A program made the translations under genes and the position numbers. Below, one piece after another: positions 12,945 to 31,233 of a stretch of 64,000 bases of DNA; the first letter of the stretch is position 1; every line of letters begins with the position of its first letter. The notes under the pieces were generated by a model. That model was given only the letters and a program-made list of their open reading frames with translations. It was not told the origin of the DNA and did no database searches. Location of the stretch: positions 832,001 through 896,000 of the forward strand of contig CAWCNY010000003.1 of assembly GCA_963797095.1 (NCBI GenBank), written 5' to 3'. Source of the stretch: an uncultured Chloroflexia bacterium (GTDB lineage Bacteria; Chloroflexota; Chloroflexia; QHBQ01; JADMIH01).

Positions 12945-14597
12945 GTGTTTCGCAAACTATCCATCCTCTCTCTGGCACTGGTAGCCGTTTTGCTGTCACT
13001 GCTAAGCCCTGGGCAGGGAGCCGGTGCGGCTGCCGGCCGCGCGTACGGCGCGAGCATGGGGGCGGCGGTGCTCGCTCCACCTCTCAGCCCCATCGGCACA
13101 GGCTTTACATATTCGGGACTGCTAGTAATCGGTGGCGCGCCTGCTGGAGGCCAGTATGACTTCACCTTGAAGCTGTTCGATGCCCTCTCAGCCGGGGTGC
13201 AGGTGGGCAGCACGATCAATATCGCTAATCAGGCGGTGATCGACGGGCACTACGACGTCCAACTCGACTTTGGCCCCTCGGCCTTCCAGGGCCAGGCGCG
13301 TTGGATCGAGATCGCCTACCGTCAGGCGGGTGGCGGTGCATATACCACGCTCACGCCGCGCCAGCCCGCATCGGTAGTTCCTTACGCCTTGAGCCTCTCG
13401 CCGGGAGCGGTTATCTCGGGCAACTCCGGTGCGGTCACTCAGGGCATACTGACGGTGCGGAACGAAAGCGTGGGCACAGCTCTGTATGGCAACAGTACCA
13501 GCGGGTACGGGCTATATGGCAGCAGCACCAGCGGCAAAGGAGTGTATGGTTCCAGTATAAGCAGCGACGGTGTCTATGGTTCCACCAGCAACAATCTCTC
13601 CGCAGGCGTGTTCGGCAGCAGCACATCGGGCACGGGTGTGAAGGGTACGAGCAGTGCCAGCTTTGGGGTGTACGGCTCGACATCGAGCGAGAATCCGTCC
13701 ATCGCGGGAGTGCTGGGCCAGTCCACCGGAACGGGTGGGGTGGGGGTAAAGGGCACGGCAAACTTCGGCTCAGGCACGGGGGTGTATGGCACCAGCAGTA
13801 CAGGCACGGGGGTACGCGGAGAGGCAACGACAAGTAGCGGTATGGGAGTGTGGGGTAGCGCACCTTCAAGCGGAGGCACCGGGGTATACGGCGAAGGGTA
13901 CTATGGCATTTTCGGCTACTCAGACTACAGAACCGGCAACGCCATATATGGCCTCAGCAATGGCAGCTCCAACTCCAAAGCAGTAGTCGGCGACAATTGG
14001 TCCGGGTACGGCGTATACGGTACGACATACAGCGGCATAGGCGTGTACGGCCAGGTGAGGACATATGGAGTTGGATATGCGGCCTACTTCCAGGGCAATG
14101 TGCACGTCAACGGCACCCTCTCCAAGAGTGCCGGGTCGTTCAAGATAGACGATCCGCTCGATCCTGAAAACAAATATCTATCTCACTCTTTCGTGGAATC
14201 TCCCGACATGATGAACGTGTACAACGGCAACGTCACCACCGACGGCAATGGCGGAGCGGTCGTGCAGCTCCCCGACTACTTTGAGGCGCTCAATCGCGAC
14301 TTCCGTTACCAGTTGACCGTAATGGGCCAGTTCGCCCAGGCCATAGTGTCGCAAAAGGTCAAGGACAATCGCTTCACGATCTTGACCGACAAGCCGAACG
14401 TGGAAGTGTCGTGGCAGGTGACCGGCATCCGCCAGGACCCCTATGCCGTAGCCCACCCCATAGAGGTTGAGGTGGAAAAGCCCAAGAGTGAGCGCGGTAC
14501 TTACCTGAACCCGCTGGAGTGGGGCCAGCCAGAGAGCAAGGGCCTCTACTACGAGCCTGAGCAGCTCGCCCAGCAGCCGCAGAGCGCGACTCGCTGA
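12945..14597 (+). CDS. Secreted Gly/Ser-rich GVYG-repeat (beta-solenoid, fibre-like) protein
   Basis: Signal peptide; many GVYG/GVxG repeats; C-terminal FKIDDPLDPENKYLSHSFVESP domain. Confidence 0.8.
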   Translation: MFRKLSILSLALVAVLLSLLSPGQGAGAAAGRAYGASMGAAVLAPPLSPIGTGFTYSGLLVIGGAPAGGQYDFTLKLFDALSAGVQVGSTINIANQAVIDGHYDVQLDFGPSAFQGQARWIEIAYRQAGGGAYTTLTPRQPASVVPYALSLSPGAVISGNSGAVTQGILTVRNESVGTALYGNSTSGYGLYGSSTSGKGVYGSSISSDGVYGSTSNNLSAGVFGSSTSGTGVKGTSSASFGVYGSTSSENPSIAGVLGQSTGTGGVGVKGTANFGSGTGVYGTSSTGTGVRGEATTSSGMGVWGSAPSSGGTGVYGEGYYGIFGYSDYRTGNAIYGLSNGSSNSKAVVGDNWSGYGVYGTTYSGIGVYGQVRTYGVGYAAYFQGNVHVNGTLSKSAGSFKIDDPLDPENKYLSHSFVESPDMMNVYNGNVTTDGNGGAVVQLPDYFEALNRDFRYQLTVMGQFAQAIVSQKVKDNRFTILTDKPNVEVSWQVTGIRQDPYAVAHPIEVEVEKPKSERGTYLNPLEWGQPESKGLYYEPEQLAQQPQSATR

Positions 14598-18045: not shown

Positions 18046-21000
18046 ATGAAGATGCTCACCAAAACGGCATCGGCCGGGCGCGCTTTTAGATATGTGCGCA
18101 CAATCGCAATAACATCGACGGTTCTTTCAACAACCTTGCTCAGGATGGCGGGGATGGTAGATACAGGTCCCGGCCTGGCTTTTGCCGGATCGTTCGCCAG
18201 CACAGCGTTCGAGACGGTGTGGCAGAGGGCCGACAAGCCGGTGGCCGAGGGCCTTGCTGTGCGGAGTTGGCTCTGGGGCGAGCAGCCGGGAAAGGCCAGC
18301 TACGAGCCATACGCGCAGGGCACGCAGGGAGAGAGGATGGTCCAGTACTTCGACAAGAGCCGCATGGAGGTCAACCACCCGGATGGCAACACCCTCGATC
18401 CCTACTATGTGACCAACGGCTTACTGGTGGTGGAGATGATGGGCGGTGAGATACAGGTCGGTGATGCCCAGTTCGAGCCTGCCTCGCCCGCCGATGTACC
18501 GGTAGCAGGCGACCTCAATGACCCCGGCCAGACGGCACCCACATATGCGGCGATGGCAAACGTCGCCAGCCTGCACGGCGAGAACCGGGCAGATAAGCTC
18601 TCGCCCGGCACCCCAATCGTTGCAACCATCGACAGCACGGGCCACGCAAACCCGACTGGAGGGCCTACAGGACTGGCGCGGGCAGCCGAATACACCCCCG
18701 ACACCGGCCACAACATCCCCAATGTCTTCTGGAACTTCCTGAACAGCCAGGGGGCTGTATACGAGGGCGGCAAACAGGTAGAGGCAAAGCTGATGGATTG
18801 GGTCTACGTCATGGGCTACCCCATCACCGAGCCTTACTGGACGCACATCCGCGTCGGTGGGGCCGACCGGCTGGTGCTCGTGCAGGCGTTCCAGAGGCGC
18901 GTGCTCACCTACTCACCCAACAACCCGGACGGGTGGAAGGTGGAGATGGGCAACGTAGGCATGCACTACTACGCCTGGCGCTACGAGCAGGACACCACCG
19001 GCTTCGTCTTCGTCAACGGCGGATACATCGAGCCGCCGTATAGCGTGGAGAGGCAGGGAGCCGGCATCTTGATCAACGGCAGCATAGTGCAGTCCGCCAG
19101 TGTGAGCAGCGAAGCGCACGCTCCCGATCCGCCGCCCGCGCAGCCCAAAGACGCTTCGGACCTGGTGAGCATAGCGAGCTACAGGCTCTGGCAGCTACAC
19201 ATCGGCCTCGCCAAAGACCTCACCCCCCAAATACGTGCCGGGATCGTCAGCCTCATCAAGAGCTATCCTGTAGCGGCAGACGTCAGCGACGATGAAAGCG
19301 GGTTCCTCGTTACCGACAGCGCCGGCAGCCAGGCCGTGCTCATGGTCCCAACGGAGCCTGCTCCCGGCTCTGAGCAGGTAAACAAAGGATTGGCAGAGAT
19401 GGTTGGGGACTGGCGCGAAGTATTGCGATCCGGCGGAGCCCTGCTGGTATCGAGCGGCGTGAACATGGAAGTGCCCGCCGAGCATACAGAAGGCTTCCTT
19501 GGAGCGCTGGTTGCCGCTTACAATCTGGGTGAGGCCGACCGGCGCGCTAAACTCAACGATCTGATAGGTGCGCCTCCCATCGTGGCCGATCTGATGAGGG
19601 CGGGTGCGCCCCCGGCTAGCTTGCGCGCCAGGCTTCCACAGCCCCGACCTGAGGCGACGCCCATCCCCGCAGGGCTGTCCGCAAACAAGGGTGGAAGCGG
19701 TCTCTTCTCTCCACCTGCCCAGGGCGCGAACGCTCTTTCGGACACACCGAAGGCCGACAAAGCCTACATCTTCATGACCCTGGGCGGGTACGAGGAGCGG
19801 GAGCCTGTGCAAAAAGCAGCCAGGGACCAGGGATACCAGGTGATTTTCTATCCTAGCATTCGCTACCCTATGGGAAGCACCACGATCGATAACTTCCTGG
19901 CTACATCGGGCCAGGCAGCCATCCTGTATGTGGCAGCACATGGCAACGCGAGCGCACTGGCAATTGAGCAATATGCAACAAAAGCCCAGCGCGACGCTGC
20001 CTGGAAAGGATACCATGACCGCGGTATAGAAACATTGCGTGGAGAAGAACCATCCTCGGACGGGTTGGGCACTGATTACACCCTGAGCATCGGCGGCAAC
20101 CTGATTGAAGCCCGATGGCGAGACGCGAACACCATCGTTCAGATTTCCGCCTGTGATAGCGCGGGTCTCGCAAGCAACTTCAAAGCGCGAGAGTTCATCG
20201 GATACCCGGCGGCACTCTACGAGGACCAACTGGCGAAAGACAATTCGGAGTTTTGGGGCAGATTGGATGGCACACGCGACAACGGCCAAAAGCGTAACGT
20301 AGGTGATGCTTTCAACGGGTCTCTCCTTCAAAAGACAGGCTTCGTGCCCTACAGCCGGGCAAATGGCCGCACGGTGCTCTCGCCCAGCGTGGTGAGCTAT
20401 TCCCCCGCCAACGGCGCTCAGCTTCCGGTCGGCACCGAGGCGCGAGTAACCATCACCTTCGATACTCCAATGGACCCCCGTTGGCACCCACTGATAGTTT
20501 CCGGCTGCGGCATAAGTTACCTCACCTTCGCCAACTGGACAGACAACCACACCTACAGCTACGGCTTCATCCCGCAGGCAGCCGGACAGACCAGGCTCGG
20601 CGCGGTGGCGCACTTTGCCAGGTCGCTATCCAGCCAGAACTACTTTGCTACGAGCAGGTTCGGGGACCTGGATGGCAACACGAAACCTGTGGGAACCGAT
20701 CACGTCGGGGCCAACGGTGACAACTTCGAGTGGTCCGTAGGCTGCGTAGGGAGCACTATCCCTTCCACCTCCACACCACAGCCCACAGTCGCGCCCCCCT
20801 CTACAGCCACTCCTCAGCCCACGGTTACCCCTCCCTCTACGGCCACCTCCCAACCTACGTCCACTACACAGGCCACGGCCACCCCTGAAGCCACCTCCAC
20901 ACCAAGTGCCACCGCCAGTGCCACCGCGACCGCTACAGCTTCGCCTACCGCATCCCCGACCCCTTCCCCATCTCCCTCGCCCACCGCCACCTCCACCGCA

Positions 21001-21411
21001 ACCCCTATCCCGGCCACGGCCACCCCGCAGCCCACGGTAACAAGCCAGCCCTCAGCTACCTCTACGCCTGTGGGTTTCTTCAGAAGTATCTACCTCGACA
21101 TCTCCATCACCAACCCTATACTGCAAGTCACTTACTACCAGGTGCACTTCGCCGACCCCAACCTGGAGGAGCAGCGTGAGCTATACCAGTACTCCTGGGA
21201 GCTTATCTTCCCTCCCGAGGACCCATGCTCCAACGGGCACATCGACGTGAGCGAGTTGCCATGGCAGGCCCTCTGGCGCCACCCCTACTGCCAGCACAGC
21301 CCCGGCGAGCAGGTCAGAGTGACCGTTACTCGCAACGATCAGTCGGTGCAGATCACAGGCCCCGCTCTCGGCCCCGCGCAAGCCACACCCACGCCCCTAC
21401 CCACACCTTGA
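18046..21411 (+). CDS. Large secreted multidomain protein with Chloroflexota-type N-terminal surface domain, Ig-like region and P/T/S linker
   Basis: VQYFDKSRME...GYPITEPYW...VQAFQRRVLTY domain; long TAT/PT-rich tract; GGAGG RBS. Confidence 0.8.
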   Translation: MKMLTKTASAGRAFRYVRTIAITSTVLSTTLLRMAGMVDTGPGLAFAGSFASTAFETVWQRADKPVAEGLAVRSWLWGEQPGKASYEPYAQGTQGERMVQYFDKSRMEVNHPDGNTLDPYYVTNGLLVVEMMGGEIQVGDAQFEPASPADVPVAGDLNDPGQTAPTYAAMANVASLHGENRADKLSPGTPIVATIDSTGHANPTGGPTGLARAAEYTPDTGHNIPNVFWNFLNSQGAVYEGGKQVEAKLMDWVYVMGYPITEPYWTHIRVGGADRLVLVQAFQRRVLTYSPNNPDGWKVEMGNVGMHYYAWRYEQDTTGFVFVNGGYIEPPYSVERQGAGILINGSIVQSASVSSEAHAPDPPPAQPKDASDLVSIASYRLWQLHIGLAKDLTPQIRAGIVSLIKSYPVAADVSDDESGFLVTDSAGSQAVLMVPTEPAPGSEQVNKGLAEMVGDWREVLRSGGALLVSSGVNMEVPAEHTEGFLGALVAAYNLGEADRRAKLNDLIGAPPIVADLMRAGAPPASLRARLPQPRPEATPIPAGLSANKGGSGLFSPPAQGANALSDTPKADKAYIFMTLGGYEEREPVQKAARDQGYQVIFYPSIRYPMGSTTIDNFLATSGQAAILYVAAHGNASALAIEQYATKAQRDAAWKGYHDRGIETLRGEEPSSDGLGTDYTLSIGGNLIEARWRDANTIVQISACDSAGLASNFKAREFIGYPAALYEDQLAKDNSEFWGRLDGTRDNGQKRNVGDAFNGSLLQKTGFVPYSRANGRTVLSPSVVSYSPANGAQLPVGTEARVTITFDTPMDPRWHPLIVSGCGISYLTFANWTDNHTYSYGFIPQAAGQTRLGAVAHFARSLSSQNYFATSRFGDLDGNTKPVGTDHVGANGDNFEWSVGCVGSTIPSTSTPQPTVAPPSTATPQPTVTPPSTATSQPTSTTQATATPEATSTPSATASATATATASPTASPTPSPSPSPTATSTATPIPATATPQPTVTSQPSATSTPVGFFRSIYLDISITNPILQVTYYQVHFADPNLEEQRELYQYSWELIFPPEDPCSNGHIDVSELPWQALWRHPYCQHSPGEQVRVTVTRNDQSVQITGPALGPAQATPTPLPTP

Positions 21412-21520: not shown

Positions 21521-24037
21521 CTACTTCCCGACCGCTACCTCGCCCTGTGCGTTCGTCGTCAGATACAGCGAACCTTTGTCATCGCTCGTGAAACCACTGC
21601 CCGGTGCGACAGTGATCGTCTGGTTGCTGCCGGTCGCGACCACGCTCACCGAGTAAGCCGTATTTGGGGCCAGGTTCGCAAGCAGGTGCACAGTCGGCGC
21701 TGTCGGCACGACATAGCTGATCGTGCCGCTCACCGGCTGGCTCTCCGGCCCTGTTCCGAACAGCACTACATGGTTGGTGCCCGGCTCGCTCAACAGAACG
21801 CCTTGTACCTCGCCGCTAAGCACATTGCCGTCGGCTGCCGATATGCGCGTTGCGAGAGCTACCGTGCCGGGTGCATCGGCTGCGTCGAACACTGTGAGCC
21901 AGCGCTGATCGGTGGCCGGGGTACCGGGGCGCACTTCGAGGCGGTAAACCTTGTTGCTGTTGAAGACGTTCACCAGCGTGTTGGCGTGGTTATAGGGCAG
22001 CAAGGTAGTGACCGAGCCTGCGAACGTCGTACCCACATTCACGTCGAAACGATGCATCCCATTGGAGGGTGCGCCCACTTCCGCGGGCATGCCCGCAAAG
22101 TGGAACGCCATCCACTGGTCCGCGCCGGCATCCGACACTGCCGTGCGGTCGTAGAGCACGAAAAGGCGGGGGCGTAGGTAGATAACCTCGCGGGTCCATG
22201 CGCCAACGAGCGGGCTTGTGCCATCACCGGCCCGGCGGTACATGTCCTCAAGGTCGGTGCCGCGAATGTAGACATAGGGGCCGGCGTCTACGAGGAGGCC
22301 GATCCGGGTTTTCGTCTGATCGGGCTCGACGCCGGTCTGGCCGTAGCGATCGGCGCGAACGTAGAAGATATTAAAGAGGGTGCCGTTCCCCAGCGTCGGA
22401 TCCGTCTCGTTGCTGCCATAGAGGTCATCGTAGATCGGCTGTTCGAACGAGCTGCCTTCGTCGCCACCCGGTGTGTTGCGTAATAGGGCTCCGGTAGCAT
22501 TCGCCAGCAGCGGCTGGCCGCCACGTACAATAGCCAGGCTGCCCTGGTCGTAATATTGCTCGCCTGACCCTGGATAAGCTACGTAGGGACCTGAGGTGAA
22601 CGAACCCCAGACGGCATCGGTCTGCCAGCTTGAGCGCATTGCCACCGTTCCCATCCCCTGCGCCAGGTATGACAACGGCAGAGTCTTGAAATCCTGCTCT
22701 GGCGCGTCCTCGTCCCAGAAGAGGAAATCCTGCCACGGCATGCCCACCTCTCCCTGCAAATTGCGCACTTCTCGTGCGAAGCTGTGCACTATCGGCGCTG
22801 AGGGGTCGTTCCAGCTTGCAAGCACGCCTGCAAGCACGCTGTACAGGTAGCTGGGCGTTCGGGCCGGGTTATCCGATCCGTAGAGCGCGCCACGGTCGTC
22901 CAGCGATAGCCTGTTGGGCCAGCTGAAGTGGATCAGGTTCAAACCCACTTCCAGCGGGAAGTTGAATGGCGCTACCGAGTTGTGGACCAGATCGAGCCCT
23001 TTGGCGGTCCGCGCCGCGAGTGCCGGCCAGATCATGTTCTCCGTGGCAAGCGGCCCGTAGTTCCAACCTTCCGGCCAGCCGCCGCCGATCATGTGGTCTG
23101 CATAGTAAGGCTGGACCATCTGCAGGTGCATGCGCTGCAGCCAATCGTCCCATTGAGTTGGGGCCTGTGGATTATCACCCTCGGTGGCAAGCGCCGCCAG
23201 TGCCTTCGCTGCGTAATAACCGGCAAAGTAGTTGCCCATCGGGTAGTCGCGCTCAAAGCCGCCATCCTGCTGCGGGCCGTCGGGGCATATGCCGCCGTGC
23301 TCGAACCAGTCAATCCAGAGATTAAGAGCGGTGTACACCTTCGCACGCAGGGCAGGTGTCAGAGCATCATACAGCCAATCGTAGCCAAGCGCCATGCCAA
23401 TCCCGTAGTTGCGGATACCATAGCCGTCGTCGCGCAAAGGGCAAGCCCAGTGTGGCGAGCCTGGCGGGTCGGACATCTTATCCAGGATATCGGCACCCTT
23501 TGCCCCGTAGGATGGCGCCGTATCGGCGGCTACTGTCTTGGTGGTCTGGTAGCACAGACCCAGGTTTAATAACGGATGGAGGTAACCGTCGCCCTGGTAG
23601 CCCGCGCCAATGCTGCCGTTATCCGGGTAATTATTGCCGTCCGGGTACTCAACGCTGCCACCGAGATAAAGGTCGCACTGCTCCTTCAGCGTCGCCCACT
23701 CTATGTTGCCAGCAGTTGCTTTCTGGCGCAAGCGCCTCAGGGTTGCCTCATCAAGCAATATCCTGGGCCGGGCCGCGCCTATCGCCGGAGAGCTCGTGAT
23801 CCCCGCCGTCGGTGAGGCGCTTATCGAGCTGGTGGCAGTCGGCTCCAGACCCGAGGTTGCTGATGGTTCCGCGACCGGCATACTGCCAGAAGTCGGCAGC
23901 GGGGCCGGGGTTGAGGTGGGAGAGGAGAGGTCGCAAGCCACGAGACCCATCAACAGCCCGGCCAGAGAGATCGCGGACAATAACATGCTGAACTTTGAGC
24001 TTGACCGGGCTATGTTGTTCACGATTTGTCTTATCAT
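21521..24037 (-). CDS. Lipoprotein, heparinase II/III-like (alpha-toroid + beta-sandwich) putative polysaccharide lyase
   Basis: Lipobox LVAC, RPRILLD, GGGWPEGWNYG, AMRSSW, WTREVIYLRP; start uncertain. Confidence 0.65.
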   Translation of the reverse strand: MIRQIVNNIARSSSKFSMLLSAISLAGLLMGLVACDLSSPTSTPAPLPTSGSMPVAEPSATSGLEPTATSSISASPTAGITSSPAIGAARPRILLDEATLRRLRQKATAGNIEWATLKEQCDLYLGGSVEYPDGNNYPDNGSIGAGYQGDGYLHPLLNLGLCYQTTKTVAADTAPSYGAKGADILDKMSDPPGSPHWACPLRDDGYGIRNYGIGMALGYDWLYDALTPALRAKVYTALNLWIDWFEHGGICPDGPQQDGGFERDYPMGNYFAGYYAAKALAALATEGDNPQAPTQWDDWLQRMHLQMVQPYYADHMIGGGWPEGWNYGPLATENMIWPALAARTAKGLDLVHNSVAPFNFPLEVGLNLIHFSWPNRLSLDDRGALYGSDNPARTPSYLYSVLAGVLASWNDPSAPIVHSFAREVRNLQGEVGMPWQDFLFWDEDAPEQDFKTLPLSYLAQGMGTVAMRSSWQTDAVWGSFTSGPYVAYPGSGEQYYDQGSLAIVRGGQPLLANATGALLRNTPGGDEGSSFEQPIYDDLYGSNETDPTLGNGTLFNIFYVRADRYGQTGVEPDQTKTRIGLLVDAGPYVYIRGTDLEDMYRRAGDGTSPLVGAWTREVIYLRPRLFVLYDRTAVSDAGADQWMAFHFAGMPAEVGAPSNGMHRFDVNVGTTFAGSVTTLLPYNHANTLVNVFNSNKVYRLEVRPGTPATDQRWLTVFDAADAPGTVALATRISAADGNVLSGEVQGVLLSEPGTNHVVLFGTGPESQPVSGTISYVVPTAPTVHLLANLAPNTAYSVSVVATGSNQTITVAPGSGFTSDDKGSLYLTTNAQGEVAVGK

Positions 24038-24337
24038 GGAACACACCATCTGCATGTTGACACATGCTATGTGCGACCAGCCATGTGAAAACGTACAATC
24101 TGAGTGCAGCTTTGACACGCTGCTATCAGGATCTATAGCTTGGAGCTTGGTAGAGATAATACCATATGCCTCCGGCTCTATAGATATGTTTCGTCGGTGC
24201 GCCCCAGATGGTCTGCTTTACCCCTACACCTGCCACGCAACTGTTCAGCGATGACTTCGCCCATGAACGATCGCTCACTGTCCCATGAGCGAGCTCAAAA
24301 GTACTCTTGAGCCATCCTGCCCTGTACATTTACCTCA

Positions 24338-24366
24338 TTGACAGATCGCCATCCCCATGCTAGGAT
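24338..24366 (+). promoter_or_regulatory. sigma70-type promoter
   Basis: TTGACA-N17-TAGGAT with TG extension. Confidence 0.55.
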
Positions 24367-24453: not shown

Positions 24454-25761
24454 ATGGCCGGTAAGAACGATAACCCGGTAACGGGCAGATCGGATGACGC
24501 CATCTATAGCCGAAGGCAATTCCTTCTCAACGCCGCGAAACTGGCCGGGGCCGCCATAGCTTATCCTCTCCTGTCAAGCCCGGTAGCAGCTGCCGCCCAA
24601 ACCGCAAGCAAATCGTCGCCCACCACGTCCAGGCCGGTTGGCCCGCATACGGTCGGCCTCTTGATGCCGGCCTCAAGCTACTATGCGGCCCTATCAAGCA
24701 GCTTCATAGCCGGTATGTCCCTCTCGTTCAGGCAGTTGGGCATGCCTGGGGTTGAGGTGGTCTCAGAAGATATAGGCTCAGGCTCGCACGATGTGTGGCA
24801 CAAGGTCGAGTTGATGATCCAATCAGGGGGCGTTGACGTGCTGGTCGGCATGGTAAATCCGAGCGTGGCTGCGACAATTCGCCCGCTGCTCGAAGGGTCC
24901 AACAAGGCGTTCATCGCCTCCGGTTTGGGCGAAAACGTGCCTCGCACCGGCGAATACAGCCCCAATATCCTGTACCATACAATGGATATGTGGCAGGCCA
25001 ACTGGGCGCTCGGCAATTGGGCCGCGCGCAACCTGGGCACCACCGCCGTGTCCGGCTCCTCTTTCTACGATAGCGGCTATGACACCGAATACGCGTTCCG
25101 CTGCGGCTTCGAAAGCGGCGGAGGGCAAATAGTAGCCGGCCTTATAACGCACCGCCCAGGCGACACCGGCGGCGTCGCGCCCCTGATCTCCCTGGTCAGG
25201 GACACCCATCCCGATCTGGTCTTTGCGGGCTACTGCGGCAACCTTGCCGTCGATCTGCTGAAAGCCTATTCAGGCGTCGGTCTATCGAGGTCCGTACCCC
25301 TCATCGGCACCGCTTATCTCACCGACCGCCAGGTGCTCGCTTCGACCGGCAATGCGGCGGCAGGGATCAGGACCGCCTTTTCCTGGTCCCGCACCCTCGA
25401 CACCCCCGAAAACCAGGCGTTCGTGGCTGCATACGAGAGCGCAACCGGCAAGAGAGCCGATCCTTTCTCGGTGCTTGGCTACGAAGCCGCCCAGATAATC
25501 GCCGCCATCACGGCTGGAAGGTCGCCGGTGGGGGCGCTGAGCACGGCCCAATTCACCGGCCCTCGCGGCAGAATCACCACAGACGGCCAGACCCATAGCA
25601 CCGTCGGGCCGGTCTACTTGCAGGAAGCCCAGAGGCGCGCCAACCTGATGCAGAACATGGTGGTAGAGCAATTGAAAGCTGCCGCCGAACAGGATGAGCA
25701 GATTGCCGCTCTTCAGGCCGCCAACAAGACCGGCTGGCTGAACACCTACCTCTGCGATTGA
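24454..25761 (+). CDS. Tat-exported branched-chain amino acid-type substrate-binding protein (orphan)
   Basis: SRRQFL Tat motif; PENQAFVAAY...LGYEAA...FTGPRG type I PBP motifs; C-terminal GWLNTYLC. Confidence 0.8.
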   Translation: MAGKNDNPVTGRSDDAIYSRRQFLLNAAKLAGAAIAYPLLSSPVAAAAQTASKSSPTTSRPVGPHTVGLLMPASSYYAALSSSFIAGMSLSFRQLGMPGVEVVSEDIGSGSHDVWHKVELMIQSGGVDVLVGMVNPSVAATIRPLLEGSNKAFIASGLGENVPRTGEYSPNILYHTMDMWQANWALGNWAARNLGTTAVSGSSFYDSGYDTEYAFRCGFESGGGQIVAGLITHRPGDTGGVAPLISLVRDTHPDLVFAGYCGNLAVDLLKAYSGVGLSRSVPLIGTAYLTDRQVLASTGNAAAGIRTAFSWSRTLDTPENQAFVAAYESATGKRADPFSVLGYEAAQIIAAITAGRSPVGALSTAQFTGPRGRITTDGQTHSTVGPVYLQEAQRRANLMQNMVVEQLKAAAEQDEQIAALQAANKTGWLNTYLCD

Positions 25762-25802
25762 GCCCTGGTCCTTCCTCTCATCGATCTTTATTGGGAGCGC
25801 TC

Positions 25803-26126
25803 ATGCTGGGGAGCTTTACCTCACAAACATTCAGCCCGCATGTGGGCGACACCTTTACACTCGCAGTAGAGGGTATGCCTCCGGTAGAGCTGCAATTGAT
25901 CTCCGTAACCGAGGTTGGCGCCCTCTCGTCCGGCAGGCCCGTAAGGGAGGCCCAGGACTACAATGGACGTGTACCTTTCTCACTTCTCTTCCGGGGCCAA
26001 CTCGATCTCTACCTGCCTCAGCAAATATATCACTTCGAACACGACCGGCTAGGCGCGATGGATATCTTCATAGTGCCAATAGGCCCCGACGCCCAGGGGA
26101 TGCGGTTCGAAGCCATCTTCGCCTGA
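25803..26126 (+). CDS. DUF6916-like protein
   Basis: FSLLFRG...LPQQIY.FEH..LG...IFIVPIG...FEAIF pattern. Confidence 0.75.
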   Translation: MLGSFTSQTFSPHVGDTFTLAVEGMPPVELQLISVTEVGALSSGRPVREAQDYNGRVPFSLLFRGQLDLYLPQQIYHFEHDRLGAMDIFIVPIGPDAQGMRFEAIFA

Positions 26127-26172
26127 GAGCAGACGAAACCCAACAAATAAGCAATAAGCAGCACGCAACAAC

Positions 26173-26212
26173 CACTCGTCACTCGTCACTCGCTACTCGT
26201 CACTCGCCACTC
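26173..26212. repeat. (CACTCGT)n heptamer repeat
   Basis: Overlaps the GNAT stop codon. Confidence 0.85.
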
Positions 26213-26662
26213 CATCAGATAATAAACCCCCACCTCTTCCACCGGCTTGAAGCCCAGGCGGTCGTATAGTCGCCTGGCCGGGTTGAAGCGTTCCACGTGG
26301 ATGCGCACCGGCTTGCCCGCCTCCCTCCCCTCCCCCAAAATGCGCGTTATGAGCCAGGTGCCTATGCCCCCATTGCGGTACTCCGGCAGCAGCGCGATAT
26401 CGACAATCCGTATCTCTTCCGGCCAGCGAGCTACATACAGGCGACCGGCGGCCCTGCCGTCTACCAGAATGATATCGCAGTTAGTGCCGGTGTAATGCTT
26501 CTGATAATAGTCGTGCTGGGCCGAAAACTGCTGTGCCAGGAACGCATCTTTCTGCGCGTCGTCCCAATCCACAAGTGCCAGTTCGGCCTCGCGCGTGCCC
26601 GCATACACTCGATAGAGAAAGGGCAGATCGTCAGATGTGATGGGGCGAAGCGTTATCTCCAT
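26186..26662 (-). CDS. GNAT N-acetyltransferase
   Basis: DIALLPEYRNGGIGT acetyl-CoA motif, NPARRLYDRLGF. Confidence 0.9.
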   Translation of the reverse strand: MEITLRPITSDDLPFLYRVYAGTREAELALVDWDDAQKDAFLAQQFSAQHDYYQKHYTGTNCDIILVDGRAAGRLYVARWPEEIRIVDIALLPEYRNGGIGTWLITRILGEGREAGKPVRIHVERFNPARRLYDRLGFKPVEEVGVYYLMEWRVTSSE

Positions 26663-26682
26663 ACATGGTTCAGGTGCACCCT

Positions 26683-26707
26683 GTAAGGGCGAGTCATGCC
26701 TCGCCTT
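26683..26707. repeat. GTAG-type REP-like palindrome (degenerate copy)
   Basis: GTAAGGGCGAGTCATGCCTCGCCTT, near-identical to 38960. Confidence 0.6.
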
Positions 26708-26751
26708 TTCAGGGCGTCTATAGAAGTGCGAATAGGGACTTTAACTCGACC

Positions 26752-27279
26752 TCAGGGGCGCGGCGGGAATACGCCTTGCATCGCGATGCAGAAGTTGAGC
26801 GTCAAATAAGGCTGCATGTTATTGTGCGGGAAACTGCTCCCCACGAACGGCAACGCCTGGGGAGACATCTGCACCAGGTTCTGGGTGCTGTTCTGCTGGT
26901 AGGCATTCGCGTACCTGGCAAGCGCGTGGTCGGCAGGACCGGGGCTGTCGCCGAGAGTATTGTTGCCTCTCTGGGTATGCGTATGGTTCGGCATCTCGGA
27001 GGTCAGCAGAGTTACCGTCTCGGACCCTCCGATCTCGCCCAGATCATGTATTGTCAGGCCGGGGCCGGGTTGGTTGCCGCCGATGTGCATTGGAACCGAA
27101 CCCTGGAGATTCGGCAAGCCGAAGTTGGACTTGCCGTTGCCTCCATACGTTGTGCCGAGCAACGAGAATAACGCGGTGTTCTGGCTTATCGGCAGTAGCT
27201 GGCCGTTGCAAAATGCCCAACCTCTGGGGGCGAAGTTGAATGGAAATATGCGTATCTCTGCAACGAATGGATCGGCCAT
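26752..27279 (-). CDS. Phage tail-collar domain (MdpB-like) protein 3
   Basis: FVAEIRIFPFNFAPRGWAFCNGQLL...GTTYGG; HTH; HNNMQPYLTLNFCI. Confidence 0.92.
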   Translation of the reverse strand: MADPFVAEIRIFPFNFAPRGWAFCNGQLLPISQNTALFSLLGTTYGGNGKSNFGLPNLQGSVPMHIGGNQPGPGLTIHDLGEIGGSETVTLLTSEMPNHTHTQRGNNTLGDSPGPADHALARYANAYQQNSTQNLVQMSPQALPFVGSSFPHNNMQPYLTLNFCIAMQGVFPPRP

Positions 27280-27289
27280 CAATTACCTC

Positions 27290-27811
27290 CTAAGACGGTG
27301 AGGGGTATACACCAAACAACGAGATGATAAAATTGAGGCCCAGGTACGGCTGGAAATTGCTGTGCGGCTGGCTGCCCCCTACCGGTGTGATGGCGGTGGC
27401 GGCCATATTTACCGTCGGCACATCCTCAAGATAGAGGTCTATACCCGCCGTGCGCGATTGGGCGAGTACGTTGCCCAGCGGGTCGGGGAGCGACCCCAAA
27501 TCCGCCGATGCGGTCAAAGGGTGAGTGTGGCTAGGTATCTGGTTGGTGGTGAGAGTTACCTCCTCAACCCCACCGTTCTGGCCGATTATGTAACTGTTAC
27601 CGCTGTCCGTGCCCATATGGATGGGCACGCGCCCTCGCAGATCGGGTAGCGCGAAAGTGCTCTGCCCATCGCCTCCGTATGTCGTGCCTATCAGGTTATA
27701 GAGGGTCTCGTATTCGGAGATTGGCAGCAGGCTACCGTCGCAAAACAACCATCCGGCGGGAGCAAAGTTGCCCGCGAATATCCGTATCTCACCGACAAAG
27801 GGCAATCCCAT
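27290..27811 (-). CDS. Phage tail-collar domain (MdpB-like) protein 2
   Basis: FVGEIRIFAGNFAPAGW...GTTYGGDG...LPDLRGR; HTH. Confidence 0.92.
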   Translation of the reverse strand: MGLPFVGEIRIFAGNFAPAGWLFCDGSLLPISEYETLYNLIGTTYGGDGQSTFALPDLRGRVPIHMGTDSGNSYIIGQNGGVEEVTLTTNQIPSHTHPLTASADLGSLPDPLGNVLAQSRTAGIDLYLEDVPTVNMAATAITPVGGSQPHSNFQPYLGLNFIISLFGVYPSPS

Positions 27812-27869
27812 CGATAGCTCCTCTCCTCTCTATCTTTACTGTCAGAATAGTACTCACACGATCCATCGT

Positions 27870-28379
27870 TTACGTCGGTGATGGGAAGATGCCCACCAGG
27901 GCGATGCAGAAATTGAGCGTCAAGAACGGCTGCACATTCAGGTGCGCCTGGCTTCCGCCGGCATTAGTCACCGAACCGGCCACCAGCGTGGTGAGGTTTT
28001 GAGCCGGGCCGTAAATGTTGTTCACGGTGCGCGCAAGGATGTTGCCCGACGGTGTGTTGGGCACGGGCGCGTTGCCGTCGCTGGCCGAGGCTTGCAGCGT
28101 GTGCGCGTGCTGAGGCATCTCGCTGGTCGTCAGAGTGTGGTTGACCTCTCCGGCCCTCTCACCCAATGTGTGACTTGAGCCGAAGTGGAGAGGCACGCGC
28201 CCCTGCAAATTGGGCAGGGCAAAGTTGGTCTGGCCGTTGCCCCCATACGTTGTACCGAGCAACGAAAATAGCGCCTGGTTCTGATTGATAGGCAGCAGTT
28301 GCCCGTTGCACAACGCCCAGTTTCGCGGGGCAAAATTAAAACTCACGATCCTGATCTCGCTTAGAAATGGCTCGGACAT
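27870..28379 (-). CDS. Phage tail-collar domain (MdpB-like) protein 1
   Basis: FLSEIRIVSFNFAPRNWALCNGQ...GTTYGG; HAH. Confidence 0.92.
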   Translation of the reverse strand: MSEPFLSEIRIVSFNFAPRNWALCNGQLLPINQNQALFSLLGTTYGGNGQTNFALPNLQGRVPLHFGSSHTLGERAGEVNHTLTTSEMPQHAHTLQASASDGNAPVPNTPSGNILARTVNNIYGPAQNLTTLVAGSVTNAGGSQAHLNVQPFLTLNFCIALVGIFPSPT

Positions 28380-28427
28380 GCGGACCCCCGTTGGAGAATA
28401 GTATTATTGAACCGGCATGCTCATGCT

Positions 28428-28456
28428 AGCATAAGTTATGTGTGCAGCCCTGTCAA
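28428..28456 (-). promoter_or_regulatory. sigma70-type promoter of the tail-collar operon
   Basis: TTGACA-N17-TATGCT on the minus strand. Confidence 0.6.
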
Positions 28457-28548
28457 GACCACGGGAAGCCAACTTCAGACAGGCTCAGCCCAGGGTTGAT
28501 ATAATGGTCCCAGACTACACCAACATAGATCAAAGACGCGATAGCTTT

Positions 28549-31233
28549 ATGGATTCCATTCTACTGGCAACCAAACTCCAGATTCCCCCGCAATCCTCTC
28601 ACGTGGTGCGGCGCACCCGCCTGGTCGATGCACTCGAACAAGCTGTCCCGCGCTACAAGGTGATCTTGCTCTCGGCTCCTGCCGGCTACGGCAAGACCAC
28701 CCTACTTTCACAATGGGCAACCACCAGCCGCTTCCCGGTGGCCTGGCTTTCTATCAGCGAGGAAGACAACGACCTGGATCGCTTCTTCCGCTACCTCCTG
28801 ACGGCCTGGGAGAAGATTCAGCCGGGCGTCAAAGAAAGCCGACTCGGCATCCTTTTGGGCGCGATGACCCCTGATAGCCGGGGGGTGCTATCGGCGTTCG
28901 TCAATCTCGCCAACGACCTCCCCGACCACGTCGTCTTTGTCCTCGACGATTACGATCTGATTGAAGACCCATCTATCCACCAGGCCCTGACCTTCCTGCT
29001 CGATCACCTCCCGCCAACCCTCCACTTCGTGCTGGCCGGGCGGGCCGGGCCGCCCCTCCCCCTCGCCCGCTACCGCGCACGCCATCAGTTGATCGAGCTC
29101 CGCAGCGAGGACCTCCAATTCGTGCAGGACGAAGCGGTCGATTTCCTCAACCAAATGATGGGGCTTGATCTTGCCCAGGATCAGGTAGCCAGGCTGCAAG
29201 TCCAGCTTGAAGGTTGGATCGCCGGTCTGCAATTGATGGCGCTGAGCCTCCAGCGCCATCGCCCGCAGGATGGTTCCAGGGAAACGGATAATCTCCTCGT
29301 TACCGGCAGACATCGCTTCGTCGCCGATTACCTCAGCGAGGACGTTCTCGCCCGCCTGCCGGGCGACATACGGCAATTCCTCCTTCAAACTGCTATCCTG
29401 GACGGGCTTTGCGGTTCGTTGTGCGACGCAGTCACCGAGAGCGGAGGCGGCCAGCAACTCCTTGAGCTATTGGAACGAGAGAACCTTTTCCTGGTGCCTC
29501 TGGACGACAACCGCGAGTGGTTCCGCTACCACAATCTCTTCGCCGACTTTCTCCGGCAAGAGCTTAACCGCCAAGACCCCGGCCAGGTAGCCGGCCTCCA
29601 TCGCCGGGCCGCGCGCTGGTACCTGGCTCACGATCTGCCCGATCAAGCCCTCCATCACGCGGTGGCAGCGACCGATCCAGGCATCGCGCTGCAAATATTC
29701 GACCTCTACATCAACGTGAAGCTGAATACAGGCCAGTTGCGCGTCGTCAAACGCTGGCTCAACTCCCTGCCGGAGAAATGGCTTTCCAAATACCCTGCGT
29801 TCGGCATCGCCCAGGCAGGCTTGCTGATCTTCACCGGCGCGTTCGACGCTTGCGTGCGTCGCATTGATGAAATAGAGCGAAGCCTGGAACCTGTAGAGAG
29901 CACACAAGCCCGACAGCAGTTGGCAAAGGTGAACGCCGTTCGCTGCGCCGTCGCGTGCATTCAAAACGACGTGGCGCAAGCAGAAACTTACGCGGACCTG
30001 GCCCTCCAGGACATATCTGAGGAGGACGATACCTCGCTGCACCTGGCCTACGGCGCGCTTGGCGACGCCTACCGCCGCACAGGACGCTGGGAAGAAGCCA
30101 GACGGTGCTACCTCAAGCTGCTCGCCCTCCCACCCAACCCTTCCTATCATTTTCACTCGGTGCACATATTCGGGGCCCTGGCCGACCTCGAATTGCGGCA
30201 AGGCCGCTTGCGCAATGCCGCCGCATACTGGAAAAAGGCCCTCGCAGGCATCCAGGAACGCCAATCGTGGGGCAATTTCCCTCTCCCCCTGCACGGCTGG
30301 GTACACATCCGGGTGGGCGAGATCCTGTACGAGTGGAACGAGTTGGCCGAGGCCGGCGAGCACCTGTCGCGTGGGTTGGAGCGAGCCGAACTGGGGGGCG
30401 ACGTGCAGGCCATGATCGCGGGCTACCTCCTTGCGGGTCGCCTCAAGCTGACCACAGGCGACCCGCAAGCGGCAGGTGATTACCTGGAGCGGGCGCGCGC
30501 CCTGGTAGACAACGCTCAGTTTCCAGGTTGGACCACCCGCTTCCAACGCTTTCAACTCGAGTTCTGGCTGACCCAGGATAGGCTCCGGGATGCTGTTGGT
30601 TGGGCCGGCGAAATGGCGCGAAGCGGCTCACCGGAAGGTCAGCAGAACGACGAGGAAACGCAGCTCGCGCTGGCACGCTTTTTGCTCGCCAGGGGTGACA
30701 GTACATCCCTTGAGCAGGTGTTGTCACTGCTCGCGCCCCTGGTCCGCGAAGCGGAAACATCCGGCAGGATGGGCATCCAGATCGAGGCCCTCGCCCTTCA
30801 CGCTCTCGCTCACTGGCGGTGCGGCGATCACGTAAGCGCCATGACCTCCCTCGAACGCGCCTTGCGCCTGGCCGAACCTGAAGGGTACATTCGCCTTTTC
30901 GTTGACCTGGGGCTTCCAGTGGCCCGGCTACTCCAGGAAGCCCGTTCCCGCGACGTAATGCCCGATTATGTCGAAACGCTGCTCGCGGCCTTCGGCGGCG
31001 ACCCGTCTTCAGCAACCTCCACACAGCAAGCGTTGCCTGAGCCGCTTTCCCCTCGCGAGCAAGAGGTCTTGCGACTGCTCGCCGCCGGCCTCACCAACCA
31101 CGAGATCGGTGAGAGCCTGGTCATTTCATCGGAAACGGCCAAGAAGCACGTCGGCAATATATGCGCCAAGCTCGGCGTCCGCAACCGCACCGAGGCCGTC
31201 GCCAGGGCCAGAGAGCTTAACCTGCTCAACTAG
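28549..31233 (+). CDS. MalT-like LuxR family regulator (STAND ATPase)
   Basis: LLATKLQIP, APAGYGKTT, LDDY, EGWIAGLQL, WFRYHNLF, C-terminal LuxR HTH. Confidence 0.93.
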   Translation: MDSILLATKLQIPPQSSHVVRRTRLVDALEQAVPRYKVILLSAPAGYGKTTLLSQWATTSRFPVAWLSISEEDNDLDRFFRYLLTAWEKIQPGVKESRLGILLGAMTPDSRGVLSAFVNLANDLPDHVVFVLDDYDLIEDPSIHQALTFLLDHLPPTLHFVLAGRAGPPLPLARYRARHQLIELRSEDLQFVQDEAVDFLNQMMGLDLAQDQVARLQVQLEGWIAGLQLMALSLQRHRPQDGSRETDNLLVTGRHRFVADYLSEDVLARLPGDIRQFLLQTAILDGLCGSLCDAVTESGGGQQLLELLERENLFLVPLDDNREWFRYHNLFADFLRQELNRQDPGQVAGLHRRAARWYLAHDLPDQALHHAVAATDPGIALQIFDLYINVKLNTGQLRVVKRWLNSLPEKWLSKYPAFGIAQAGLLIFTGAFDACVRRIDEIERSLEPVESTQARQQLAKVNAVRCAVACIQNDVAQAETYADLALQDISEEDDTSLHLAYGALGDAYRRTGRWEEARRCYLKLLALPPNPSYHFHSVHIFGALADLELRQGRLRNAAAYWKKALAGIQERQSWGNFPLPLHGWVHIRVGEILYEWNELAEAGEHLSRGLERAELGGDVQAMIAGYLLAGRLKLTTGDPQAAGDYLERARALVDNAQFPGWTTRFQRFQLEFWLTQDRLRDAVGWAGEMARSGSPEGQQNDEETQLALARFLLARGDSTSLEQVLSLLAPLVREAETSGRMGIQIEALALHALAHWRCGDHVSAMTSLERALRLAEPEGYIRLFVDLGLPVARLLQEARSRDVMPDYVETLLAAFGGDPSSATSTQQALPEPLSPREQEVLRLLAAGLTNHEIGESLVISSETAKKHVGNICAKLGVRNRTEAVARARELNLLN

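Follow-up and report, generated by a model that had tools for sequence, protein, structure and literature searches.

A collar-protein trio in a recurrent cellular cassette of an uncultured Chloroflexia bacterium: a possible domesticated fibre tip

A 64,000-nucleotide stretch of an uncultured Chloroflexia bacterium (assembly GCA_963797095.1, contig CAWCNY010000003.1, positions 832,001 to 896,000; hereafter "the window") harbors three adjacent genes for small proteins with a phage tail-collar domain, termed colA, colB and colC. They are accompanied by genes for a GNAT acetyltransferase, a DUF6916 protein and a binding protein (SBP) with a twin-arginine (Tat) signal. The explanation that fits best, with a probability of about 0.45, is that these six genes make up a single copy of a widespread cassette, cellular in nature and of phage-fibre origin, in which the trio would form a domesticated heterotrimeric fibre tip that is exported folded and works with a giant adhesin. 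This explanation draws on sequence comparison and on analogy with known systems.

The Collar Trio and Its Locus

The six genes and the two promoter-like sites preceding them are arranged as follows, in window coordinates:

24338..24366, forward strand: sigma-70-like promoter match 5' of the SBP gene (TTGACA-17-TAGGAT with TG, 10/12), a consensus match only
24454..25761, forward strand: SBP, Peripla_BP_6 with a twin-arginine signal, 435 aa (PF13458, E 9e-42, 144.4 bits)
25803..26126, forward strand (frame open from TTG 25758): signal-less DUF6916 protein, 107 aa from ATG 25803 (PF21880, E 1.8e-29, 102.1 bits, cut-off 27)
26186..26662, reverse strand: GNAT acetyltransferase, 158 aa, downstream of the trio on the same strand (PF00583, E 5e-11, 43.3 bits, cut-off 20.7)
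26752..27282, reverse strand: colC, third collar paralog (SQNTALF, GQGPGLS type), 176 aa (PF07484, E 3.5e-28, 97.8 bits)
27290..27811, reverse strand: colB, second collar paralog (PISENE type), 173 aa (PF07484, E 3e-30, 104.3 bits)
27870..28379, reverse strand: colA, first collar paralog (PINQNQALF type), 169 aa (PF07484, E 3e-28, 97.9 bits)
28428..28456, reverse strand: sigma-70-like promoter match 5' of colA (TTGACA-17-TATGCT, 10/12), ~49 nt before the colA ATG, a consensus match only

The open reading frame (ORF) listing and the Pfam scan bear out the six-gene content and the convergent layout given in the initial annotation of this DNA, together with its description of three signal-less collar paralogs of ~170 residues. 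All three collars exceed the PF07484 gathering cut-off of 24 bits, and colA also displays a weak match to Gp10_C, under the cut-off (E 2e-5). Identity to colA amounts to 48% and 56% for the other two collars. The three proteins share an HxH pair (H91/H93 in colA numbering), a conserved Cys24, and a C-terminal end of the form H.N.QP.L.LNF.I...G.[FY]P. Their N-termini, MSEPFLSEIR, MGLPFVGEIR and MMADPFVAEIR, as read from the sequence, contain no hydrophobic signal segment. As for the sigma70 promoter attributed to the trio, the site is present, as a consensus match of a kind found five times in the region and 2.0 +/- 1.4 times in shuffled sequences.

Conservation across Phyla

A scan of one genome per species returned at least 583 confirmed colA relatives, and the number of matching stretches is estimated at ~3000. 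The locus counts given here and below refer to the best 80 of these relatives, in which the window's proteins were searched by tblastn and DUF6916 by hidden Markov model (HMM). Since selection was by closeness to colA and many of the loci are mutually related, the counts characterize the cassette family and are not independent. The loci are labelled Acidobacteriota, Chloroflexota, Pseudomonadota (Alpha-, Beta-, and Gammaproteobacteria), Verrucomicrobiota, Actinomycetota, Bacteroidota, Gemmatimonadota, and Myxococcota, and the carriers, many of them soil bacteria, include cultivable Mesorhizobium and Sphingomonas strains.

The order colA-colB-colC is found in 75 of the 80 loci; among the other five, four end at a contig edge and one reads B-A-C. 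The GNAT gene is present in 76 loci, DUF6916 in 69, and a very large protein, described below as the giant partner, in 64. Restricting the count to the 56 loci flanked by 3 kb or more on each side gives 56, 51, and 52, respectively, with all three present in 49. The trio, the GNAT and DUF6916 are hence co-conserved, which is the outcome that the initial annotation had looked for in the gene neighbourhood. Its statement that the set recurs across phyla without an assigned function also holds, in 80 loci from about eight phyla: no description of the cassette was found in the literature searched (subscription journals being outside the scope of this search and of the one for DUF6916 mentioned below).

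Orthologs in 73 loci are 63-73% identical to colA, and identities range from 56 to 71% for colB and from 59 to 75% for colC. Within the window's own phylum, Chloroflexota, DUF6916 occurs in 5 of 201 sampled genomes. Such a patchy presence combined with an identity of 63-75% across phyla fits horizontal spread under strong purifying selection. Two loci carry broken collar genes, with an in-frame stop in colB (L023:6554-7054) or with colB and colC in pieces (L070:6522-7641); either gene decay or misassembly of metagenome-assembled genomes may explain them. In soil-metagenome DNA, three runs of one study are listed with small shares (0.06-0.16), and no RNA run is listed.

Three Orthologous Clades and a Possible Heterotrimer

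A tree of 221 collar sequences contains exactly three clades, one per gene position, with supports of 0.98 (A), 0.995 (B), and 0.96 (C). Identity amounts to ~70% within clades versus 48-53% between them. In 42 columns, conservation is shared by the three clades, among them the HxH pair, another His and the C-terminal motif, and H91 and H93 reach at least 90% conservation in every clade. Another 14 alignment columns are fixed differently between the clades.

Fusions were counted among the 120 longer colA homologs listed. Three collar modules are found in a single chain in 40 of them and two modules in 43. The order B-A-C is seen in 21 of the 40 three-module chains, 13 of which start with a signal-peptide-like N-terminus, and a PEP-CTERM anchor closes the C-end of 24 of the 120. 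Such single-chain three-module fusions are classical evidence that three proteins form one unit, and the signal peptides or PEP-CTERM anchors borne by the fused chains indicate that the collar module works outside the cell in these relatives. Three of the longer homologs (P0294, P0353, and P0361) possess a signal at the N-terminus, three modules, and a PEP-CTERM anchor at the C-terminus; their chains open with a module's C-terminal motif, in the manner of a circular permutation, and they may be an exosortase-sorted form of the collar trio unit.

A 1:1:1 ColA/ColB/ColC heterotrimer is the best reading of these data and is well supported indirectly, because the three clades are kept together, because three-module fusions occur, and because the virophage DSLV2 provides a heterotrimeric precedent (see the last section). 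A surface role would fit the giant partner with its Ig-like and beta-helix domains. The clades, the fusions, the virophage and the giant partner all speak for the domesticated heterotrimeric fibre-tip/adhesin suggested at the outset, of which the heterotrimer itself is a predicted element.

The Giant Beta-Helix/Ig Partner

ORF clustering of the 80 loci reveals the family of very large proteins counted above. In 25 loci, the giant is encoded upstream on the trio's strand, and its stop codon is separated from colA by no more than ~500 bp, in most cases by no more than 100 bp; elsewhere the giant follows the cassette or diverges from it. These proteins display N-terminal signals and Big_3_5, Big_5, Big_9, cadherin-like, DUF11, PKD, Calx-beta, and SLH domains. 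They share a colinear module of ~850 residues, the consensus of which displays parallel beta-helix repeats, and 5 of 16 module members match PF13229 (best E 3e-7). Compared with the PDB, the module yields no match as a single sequence and, as a profile, only weak ones to beta-helix carbohydrate enzymes (E ~0.03). Its look-alikes in a protein atlas are clusters of Big_9 + Beta_helix (0.87), which is a lead only. As judged from its sequence, the module includes a Big_9 (Ig-like) domain together with a right-handed beta-helix.

The giant of this genome lies on the same contig as the cassette (C3), outside the window. It is listed here with the two large proteins that are encoded nearer to the trio:

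C3:812631-817940 (L085:8632-13941), forward strand: homolog of the giant partner, 1769 aa, with a signal peptide, DUF11 repeats and two C-terminal SLH domains, the shared module covering residues ~90-940, 41 kb upstream of the cassette
18046-21411, forward strand: large protein, 1121 aa, signal-like N-terminus
21521-24118, reverse strand: large protein, 865 aa, signal-like N-terminus, adjoining the SBP gene

The giant homolog shares 66% identity with the partner of the closest locus; it is flanked by a methyltransferase gene on one side and by a TetR/tautomerase region on the other. Among the closest relatives, the giant partner adjoins the trio and is divergent from it. The initial annotation had assumed that the trio caps the large secreted proteins encoded at 12945 and 18046, an idea that has to be abandoned. 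With 74 partner proteins as queries, tblastn returned no hit in the window; hence none of the proteins at 12945, 18046, and 21521 (the last being the 865-aa neighbour) is a homolog of the conserved partner. The two listed above, 18046-21411 and 21521-24118, have no Pfam match at E 0.01 and no likeness to the giant; one of them possesses long Thr/Pro/Ser-rich linkers.

Twin-Arginine Proteins and the Orphan Binding Protein

The N-terminus of the SBP (...YSRRQFLLNAAKLAGAAIAYPLL) carries a canonical twin-arginine motif (SRRQFL) and a hydrophobic stretch. It follows the pattern of Tat substrates, S/T-R-R-x-F-L and then a hydrophobic stretch (SRRQFLLNAAKLAGAAIAYPLL), and the protein is predicted to be exported; TatC is encoded in this genome (E 2e-65). 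No permease or ATPase gene lies beside the SBP in the window, where its neighbours are the 865-aa protein and DUF6916, and none of the 13 ORFs flanking its homologs in four related loci is a transporter part. Homologs sharing 27-48% identity with the window's SBP belong to the cassette in 10 of the 80 loci, nine of which are labelled Chloroflexota. In 6 of these 10, the gene lies 5' of colA on the strand of the trio: it is the immediate neighbour of colA in five, and in L029 it stands before the GNAT and DUF6916 genes. The linkage takes three different arrangements within Chloroflexota. Judged by this gene order, the orphan Tat binding protein, which the initial annotation had rightly described as devoid of permease and ATPase, is a true cassette member within Chloroflexota.

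Tat signals are also frequent beyond these loci. A strict twin-arginine ORF is found in 47 of the 80 cassette regions (mean 7.3 kb). As controls, random 8-kb segments of this genome contain one in 44 cases out of 300, and the far flanks of these 80 loci yield 0.05 per 8 kb. Many loci have a slot for such a gene, either between colC and the GNAT gene or just before colA. In 23 loci, as read by eye from the HMM table, a further DUF6916 paralog carries a Tat signal; 14 of them were scanned by Pfam (E 1e-9 to 6e-22). Furthermore, two Tat families of 200-250 residues occur in Xanthomonadales, Burkholderiales, and Thermoanaerobaculia; they have no Pfam domain besides the Tat-signal models, DUF6916 being matched at E >1 only.

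The GNAT and DUF6916 Proteins

The GNAT is not a RimI, as it scores 29.6 bits with the TIGR01575 equivalog model, the cut-off of which is 86.4. The closest solved sequences are N-alpha-acetyltransferases, matched weakly (E 2e-4 to 9e-3) and over the acetyl-CoA core only, and the protein perhaps works like one of them. GNATs require acetyl-CoA, which is cytoplasmic. In alignment rows starting at Met, residue 2 of the collars is Ala, Ser, or Gly in 74/74 colA, 72/72 colB, and 34/36 colC; the N-terminal pattern M-[A/S/G]-[E/Q/D]-P-[F/Y] is conserved, and M-x-[E/Q/D]-P-[F/Y] is invariant. Lysines are rare, with means, uncorrected for host composition, of 1.05 (colA), 0.36 (colB), and 1.69 (colC) per ~170 residues in the ortholog alignments. 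The small residue at position 2 and the paucity of lysines make the collar N-termini a possible target, and we hypothesize that the GNAT acts on them. A role of the GNAT as the toxin of a toxin-antitoxin pair was considered and set aside: no small DNA-binding antitoxin gene lies beside it, and DUF6916 is often encoded on the opposite strand.

The initial annotation saw the GNAT as an acetylating maturase and added a chaperone; both roles, the latter for DUF6916, are putative. DUF6916 is single-copy in this genome. Its start is likelier at ATG 25803 than at TTG 25758, which overlaps the SBP gene, because a GGGAG sequence precedes the former. The predicted model has a predicted local distance difference test (pLDDT) score of 88 and shows a small split beta-barrel. 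Its best structural matches are MrkH (Z 9.0) and PP4397, YcgR, and MotI (Z 8.2-7.7), at 8-12% identity, which may point to the YcgR-N/PilZ-N type; a Foldseek search of the PDB with the model returned no match at E 0.001. The family is large, with 10,890 cluster representatives at E 0.001, and DUF6916 or PF21880 is not mentioned in the literature searched.

Phage, Injection-System and Viral-Contig Checks

The absence of capsid, sheath and baseplate genes beside the trio, noted from the start, was confirmed by family searches and by tblastn, which gave nothing in the window. Searched over the whole genome, the sheath, baseplate-J, and gp25 families match on contigs C4 and C2 only, with none on C3, and the HK97 Phage_capsid family has no match in the genome. 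Used as tblastn queries, the sheath, gp25, and baseplate-J proteins encoded in this genome found nothing in the window and nothing in the 80 loci.

On contig C4, a sheath (537-aa frame, E 5e-20), a gp25 (E 3e-26), and a baseplate-J protein (E 5e-11) are encoded within ~11 kb (C4:329818-341114). This contractile-injection-like cluster may be an extracellular contractile injection system (eCIS) or a tailocin.

The initial annotation was prepared to give up the domesticated system if the genes belonged to an eCIS elsewhere in the genome. A sheath/gp25/baseplate-J cluster does exist, but 4 of 9 other cassette genomes (G013, G150, G201, and G205) have no sheath match, two more have one only under the cut-off, and the 80 loci contain no contractile-injection homolog. 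As far as these homology searches go, the cassette is independent of a contractile machine.

Collar trios are also found in viral collections. In a scan of IMG/VR, 9 of 42 loci have three tandem collar-type genes (42-59% identity), with a GNAT gene in three of the nine and a giant ORF after the trio in one. A tenth locus, L093, which is cut at its start, has two collar genes and a GNAT gene. These trios are probably either the same cassette or a trio of the virophage type. On a 10.6-kb IMG/VR contig, six tandem collar genes (L087:4486-7684) form two trios, each of them B-A-C by best match.

Next to colA lies a regulator gene:

28438..31233, forward strand: MalT-type STAND/LuxR regulator, divergent from colA, with AAA_16, TPR_MalT (E 2e-56), GerE (E 5e-18), and NF003420 (E 5e-150, below its cut-off)

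Its first ATG is probably too early, since the family matches start near residue 38-42. The protein is a candidate local regulator; it was rejected as a cassette member, tblastn at E 1e-5 having found no homolog in the 80 loci. When these seven proteins were compared with the PADLOC defence models, the six cassette proteins had no match at E 0.01, and the only matches were to the helix-turn-helix (HTH) region of the regulator (E 4e-6 and 3e-5). The latter rest on a shared DNA-binding domain.

Proposed Mechanism and Alternatives

In the mechanism that we propose, one chain each of ColA, ColB, and ColC would assemble at 1:1:1 into a heterotrimeric needle, the counterpart of the distal end of a long tail fibre, with the three HxH pairs holding a metal ion on the trimer axis. 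The GNAT would act in the cytoplasm, most likely on the N-termini, with their Ala/Ser/Gly ends after Met removal. The trimer, signal-less and probably metal-loaded, would have to fold and intertwine before it functions, as all fibre tips do. It would leave the cytoplasm folded, by the Tat pathway, as the passenger of a partner with a Tat signal. In this genome, the partner would be the orphan binding protein, and DUF6916, with its PilZ-N-like small barrel, would be the adaptor. Outside the cell, the tip and the giant beta-helix/Ig surface protein, here SLH-anchored, would constitute a device for adhesion or glycan recognition.

Several observations weigh against this mechanism. That the collars would be Tat passengers is deduced from gene neighbourhood. 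The Tat families are heterogeneous, with no detectable common domain beyond DUF6916, and about one third of the loci have no recognisable Tat-type ORF. In five Mesorhizobium loci (L009, L014, L039, L060, and L061), the Tat slot between colC and the GNAT gene is occupied by a signal-less protein of ~440 residues, with weak FG-GAP and Tectonin matches (E ~0.01), that might be a beta-propeller. In this genome the giant is not adjacent to the trio, being 41 kb away. The GNAT resembles N-alpha-acetyltransferases weakly and in the acetyl-CoA core only, and the top Z of 9.0 for DUF6916 is only slightly over the stated background best of 7-8. The colA monomer model, from a 74-row alignment, has a pLDDT of 47 and a predicted template modelling score (pTM) of 0.15 and is unusable for a fold search. 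Finally, the counts come from 80 loci that are not independent samples.

The mechanism can be challenged on where the trio resides and on which partners belong to it. It is unlikely that the trio, the GNAT and the signal-less DUF6916 all stay in the cytoplasm, serving as a station for the assembly, quality control or modification of the exported giant and the Tat substrates. The lack of signal peptides in the collars, the GNAT and the DUF6916 of the window, the cytoplasmic acetyl-CoA that a GNAT needs, and the retention of Cys24 would all suit such a station, but the closest characterised relatives of the collars are external receptor-binding tips, and related three-module chains bear export signals (13 of 21 B-A-C chains) or a PEP-CTERM (24 of the 120 longer homologs listed). 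We are similarly disinclined to regard the SBP as a mere neighbour, with its transporter genes elsewhere and only the trio, the GNAT and DUF6916 belonging together. Homologs in only 10 of 80 loci, at modest identity, would be expected of a neighbour; against this stand the three linkage arrangements within Chloroflexota, the position upstream of colA in six loci, the 13 flanking ORFs in four loci without a permease or an ATPase, and the fact that other phyla fill the same slot with other Tat-signal proteins.

Two other explanations are less likely still. The trimer could be released as a competition or protection factor, either a lectin-like bacteriocin or a decoy masking surface receptors from phages that have similar fibre tips, with no structural tie to the giant. 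The homology of the collar module to receptor-binding tips and the traits of a horizontally spread accessory function (DUF6916 in few genomes of the phylum, colA highly similar across phyla) are in line with it. Nevertheless, the seven proteins scanned match no known defence-system model except through the HTH region of the MalT-type regulator, genes for lysis, immunity or toxins do not recur among the 80 loci, and the stop of the giant lies close upstream of colA in 25 of them, so that a released factor appears improbable. Most remote of all is the idea that the trio provides the tail fibres of the C4 contractile injection system or of a prophage: the genome does contain the sheath/gp25/baseplate-J cluster, and no HK97 capsid match, but four of nine other cassette genomes devoid of a sheath match, the 80 loci devoid of any homolog of the three proteins, and the constant neighbours of the trio (the GNAT, DUF6916, and the giant adhesin-like protein) speak against it.

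An exported, domesticated tip working with the giant is therefore preferred. In its most complete form, it would be a phage-derived, phage-independent part of a surface organelle in at least eight phyla, with an obligate heterotrimeric tip, N-termini blocked by the GNAT, and export as a folded, metal-loaded Tat passenger of a DUF6916 or binding-protein carrier, the tip then docking on a giant adhesin as a phage-like receptor-binding device; that all of these elements hold together is doubtful. If they did, the trio would define a new class of Tat cargo and a new type of bacterial adhesion apparatus. Should the mechanism proposed above be right, bacteria would re-use phage receptor-binding tips on their own surface, a large family of unassigned domains would gain a function, and the Tat pathway would gain a non-redox, fibrous passenger. 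The hypothesis is directly testable, as the pieces are small and soluble and exist in cultivable Mesorhizobium and Sphingomonas.

Comparison with Known Systems

Among solved structures, the colA profile matches the C-terminal half of 8kec_A (E 4e-8), which we take to be the long tail fibre of the Anabaena myophage A-1(L), and the match spans the HxH pair and the C-terminal GGSQxH..QP motif. T4 gp12 matches the profile only at E 0.7. In the structures of T4 gp37 and gp12, HxH pairs reportedly bind Fe or Zn on the trimer axis. The cassette collars thus resemble the phage fibre tips (8kec; T4 gp37, gp12, and gp10) in having a collar domain followed by HxH and a C-terminal GGSQxH.N.QP. In contrast, the phage fibres are homotrimers of long chains ending in a collar module, whereas the cassette module stands alone and in three diverged copies.

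Export of a signal-less protein together with a Tat-signal partner has precedents in E. coli, where subunits of hydrogenase-2 (HybO/HybC) and DmsA/DmsB are co-exported as Tat "hitchhikers". The proposed passenger would likewise be a folded, cofactor-loaded and signal-less protein encoded beside a twin-arginine partner. The cassette differs in lacking a redox cofactor enzyme, and its passenger-carrier pairing is deduced from gene neighbourhood.

Small collar-domain proteins are also known outside phages. RhiB, from the Rhizobium rhiABC(D) genes, is one of them and belongs to COG4675 (PMC13133039, PMC6969944), and proteins of COG4675 have been detected in a soil metaproteome (PMC5579227). In one source, many close colA homologs bear the same COG4675 name, "microcystin-dependent protein" (MdpB). 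The rhi operon differs from the cassette by having a single collar gene, accompanied by RhiA, RhiC, and RhiD and controlled by RhiR/RhiI quorum sensing, and neither a trio nor a GNAT nor a DUF6916 gene.

The nearest counterpart of the trio is found in the virophage DSLV2, of the Aquatic Virophage 1 lineage. According to its description (J Virol 2025, PMC12724248), three consecutive collar proteins co-purify at 1:1:1 with a mass of ~55 kDa by native polyacrylamide gel electrophoresis (58.3 kDa theoretical) and form ~16-nm needles comparable with the T4 gp37 tip. The same study reports that these needles bind cyanobacterial (Synechococcus) cells and that docking points to a lipopolysaccharide receptor (PMC12724248). 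Both systems possess three consecutive, diverged, small PF07484 genes of like length, a likeness by description. The DSLV2 trio is a virion part encoded beside capsid genes, whereas the cassette trio is cellular, has no virion genes in the 80 loci, and is linked to the GNAT, DUF6916, Tat-signal proteins and the giant. The collar-domain fibre tip, heterotrimeric in a virophage, is hence already known, and the cellular cassette is, as far as the searches show, an undescribed variant of it in the literature searched. The present analysis adds the giant partner with beta-helix and Ig-like domains, the cassette member with a Tat signal, both forms of DUF6916, the single-chain fusions with export signals, and the N-terminal and lysine pattern of the collars.

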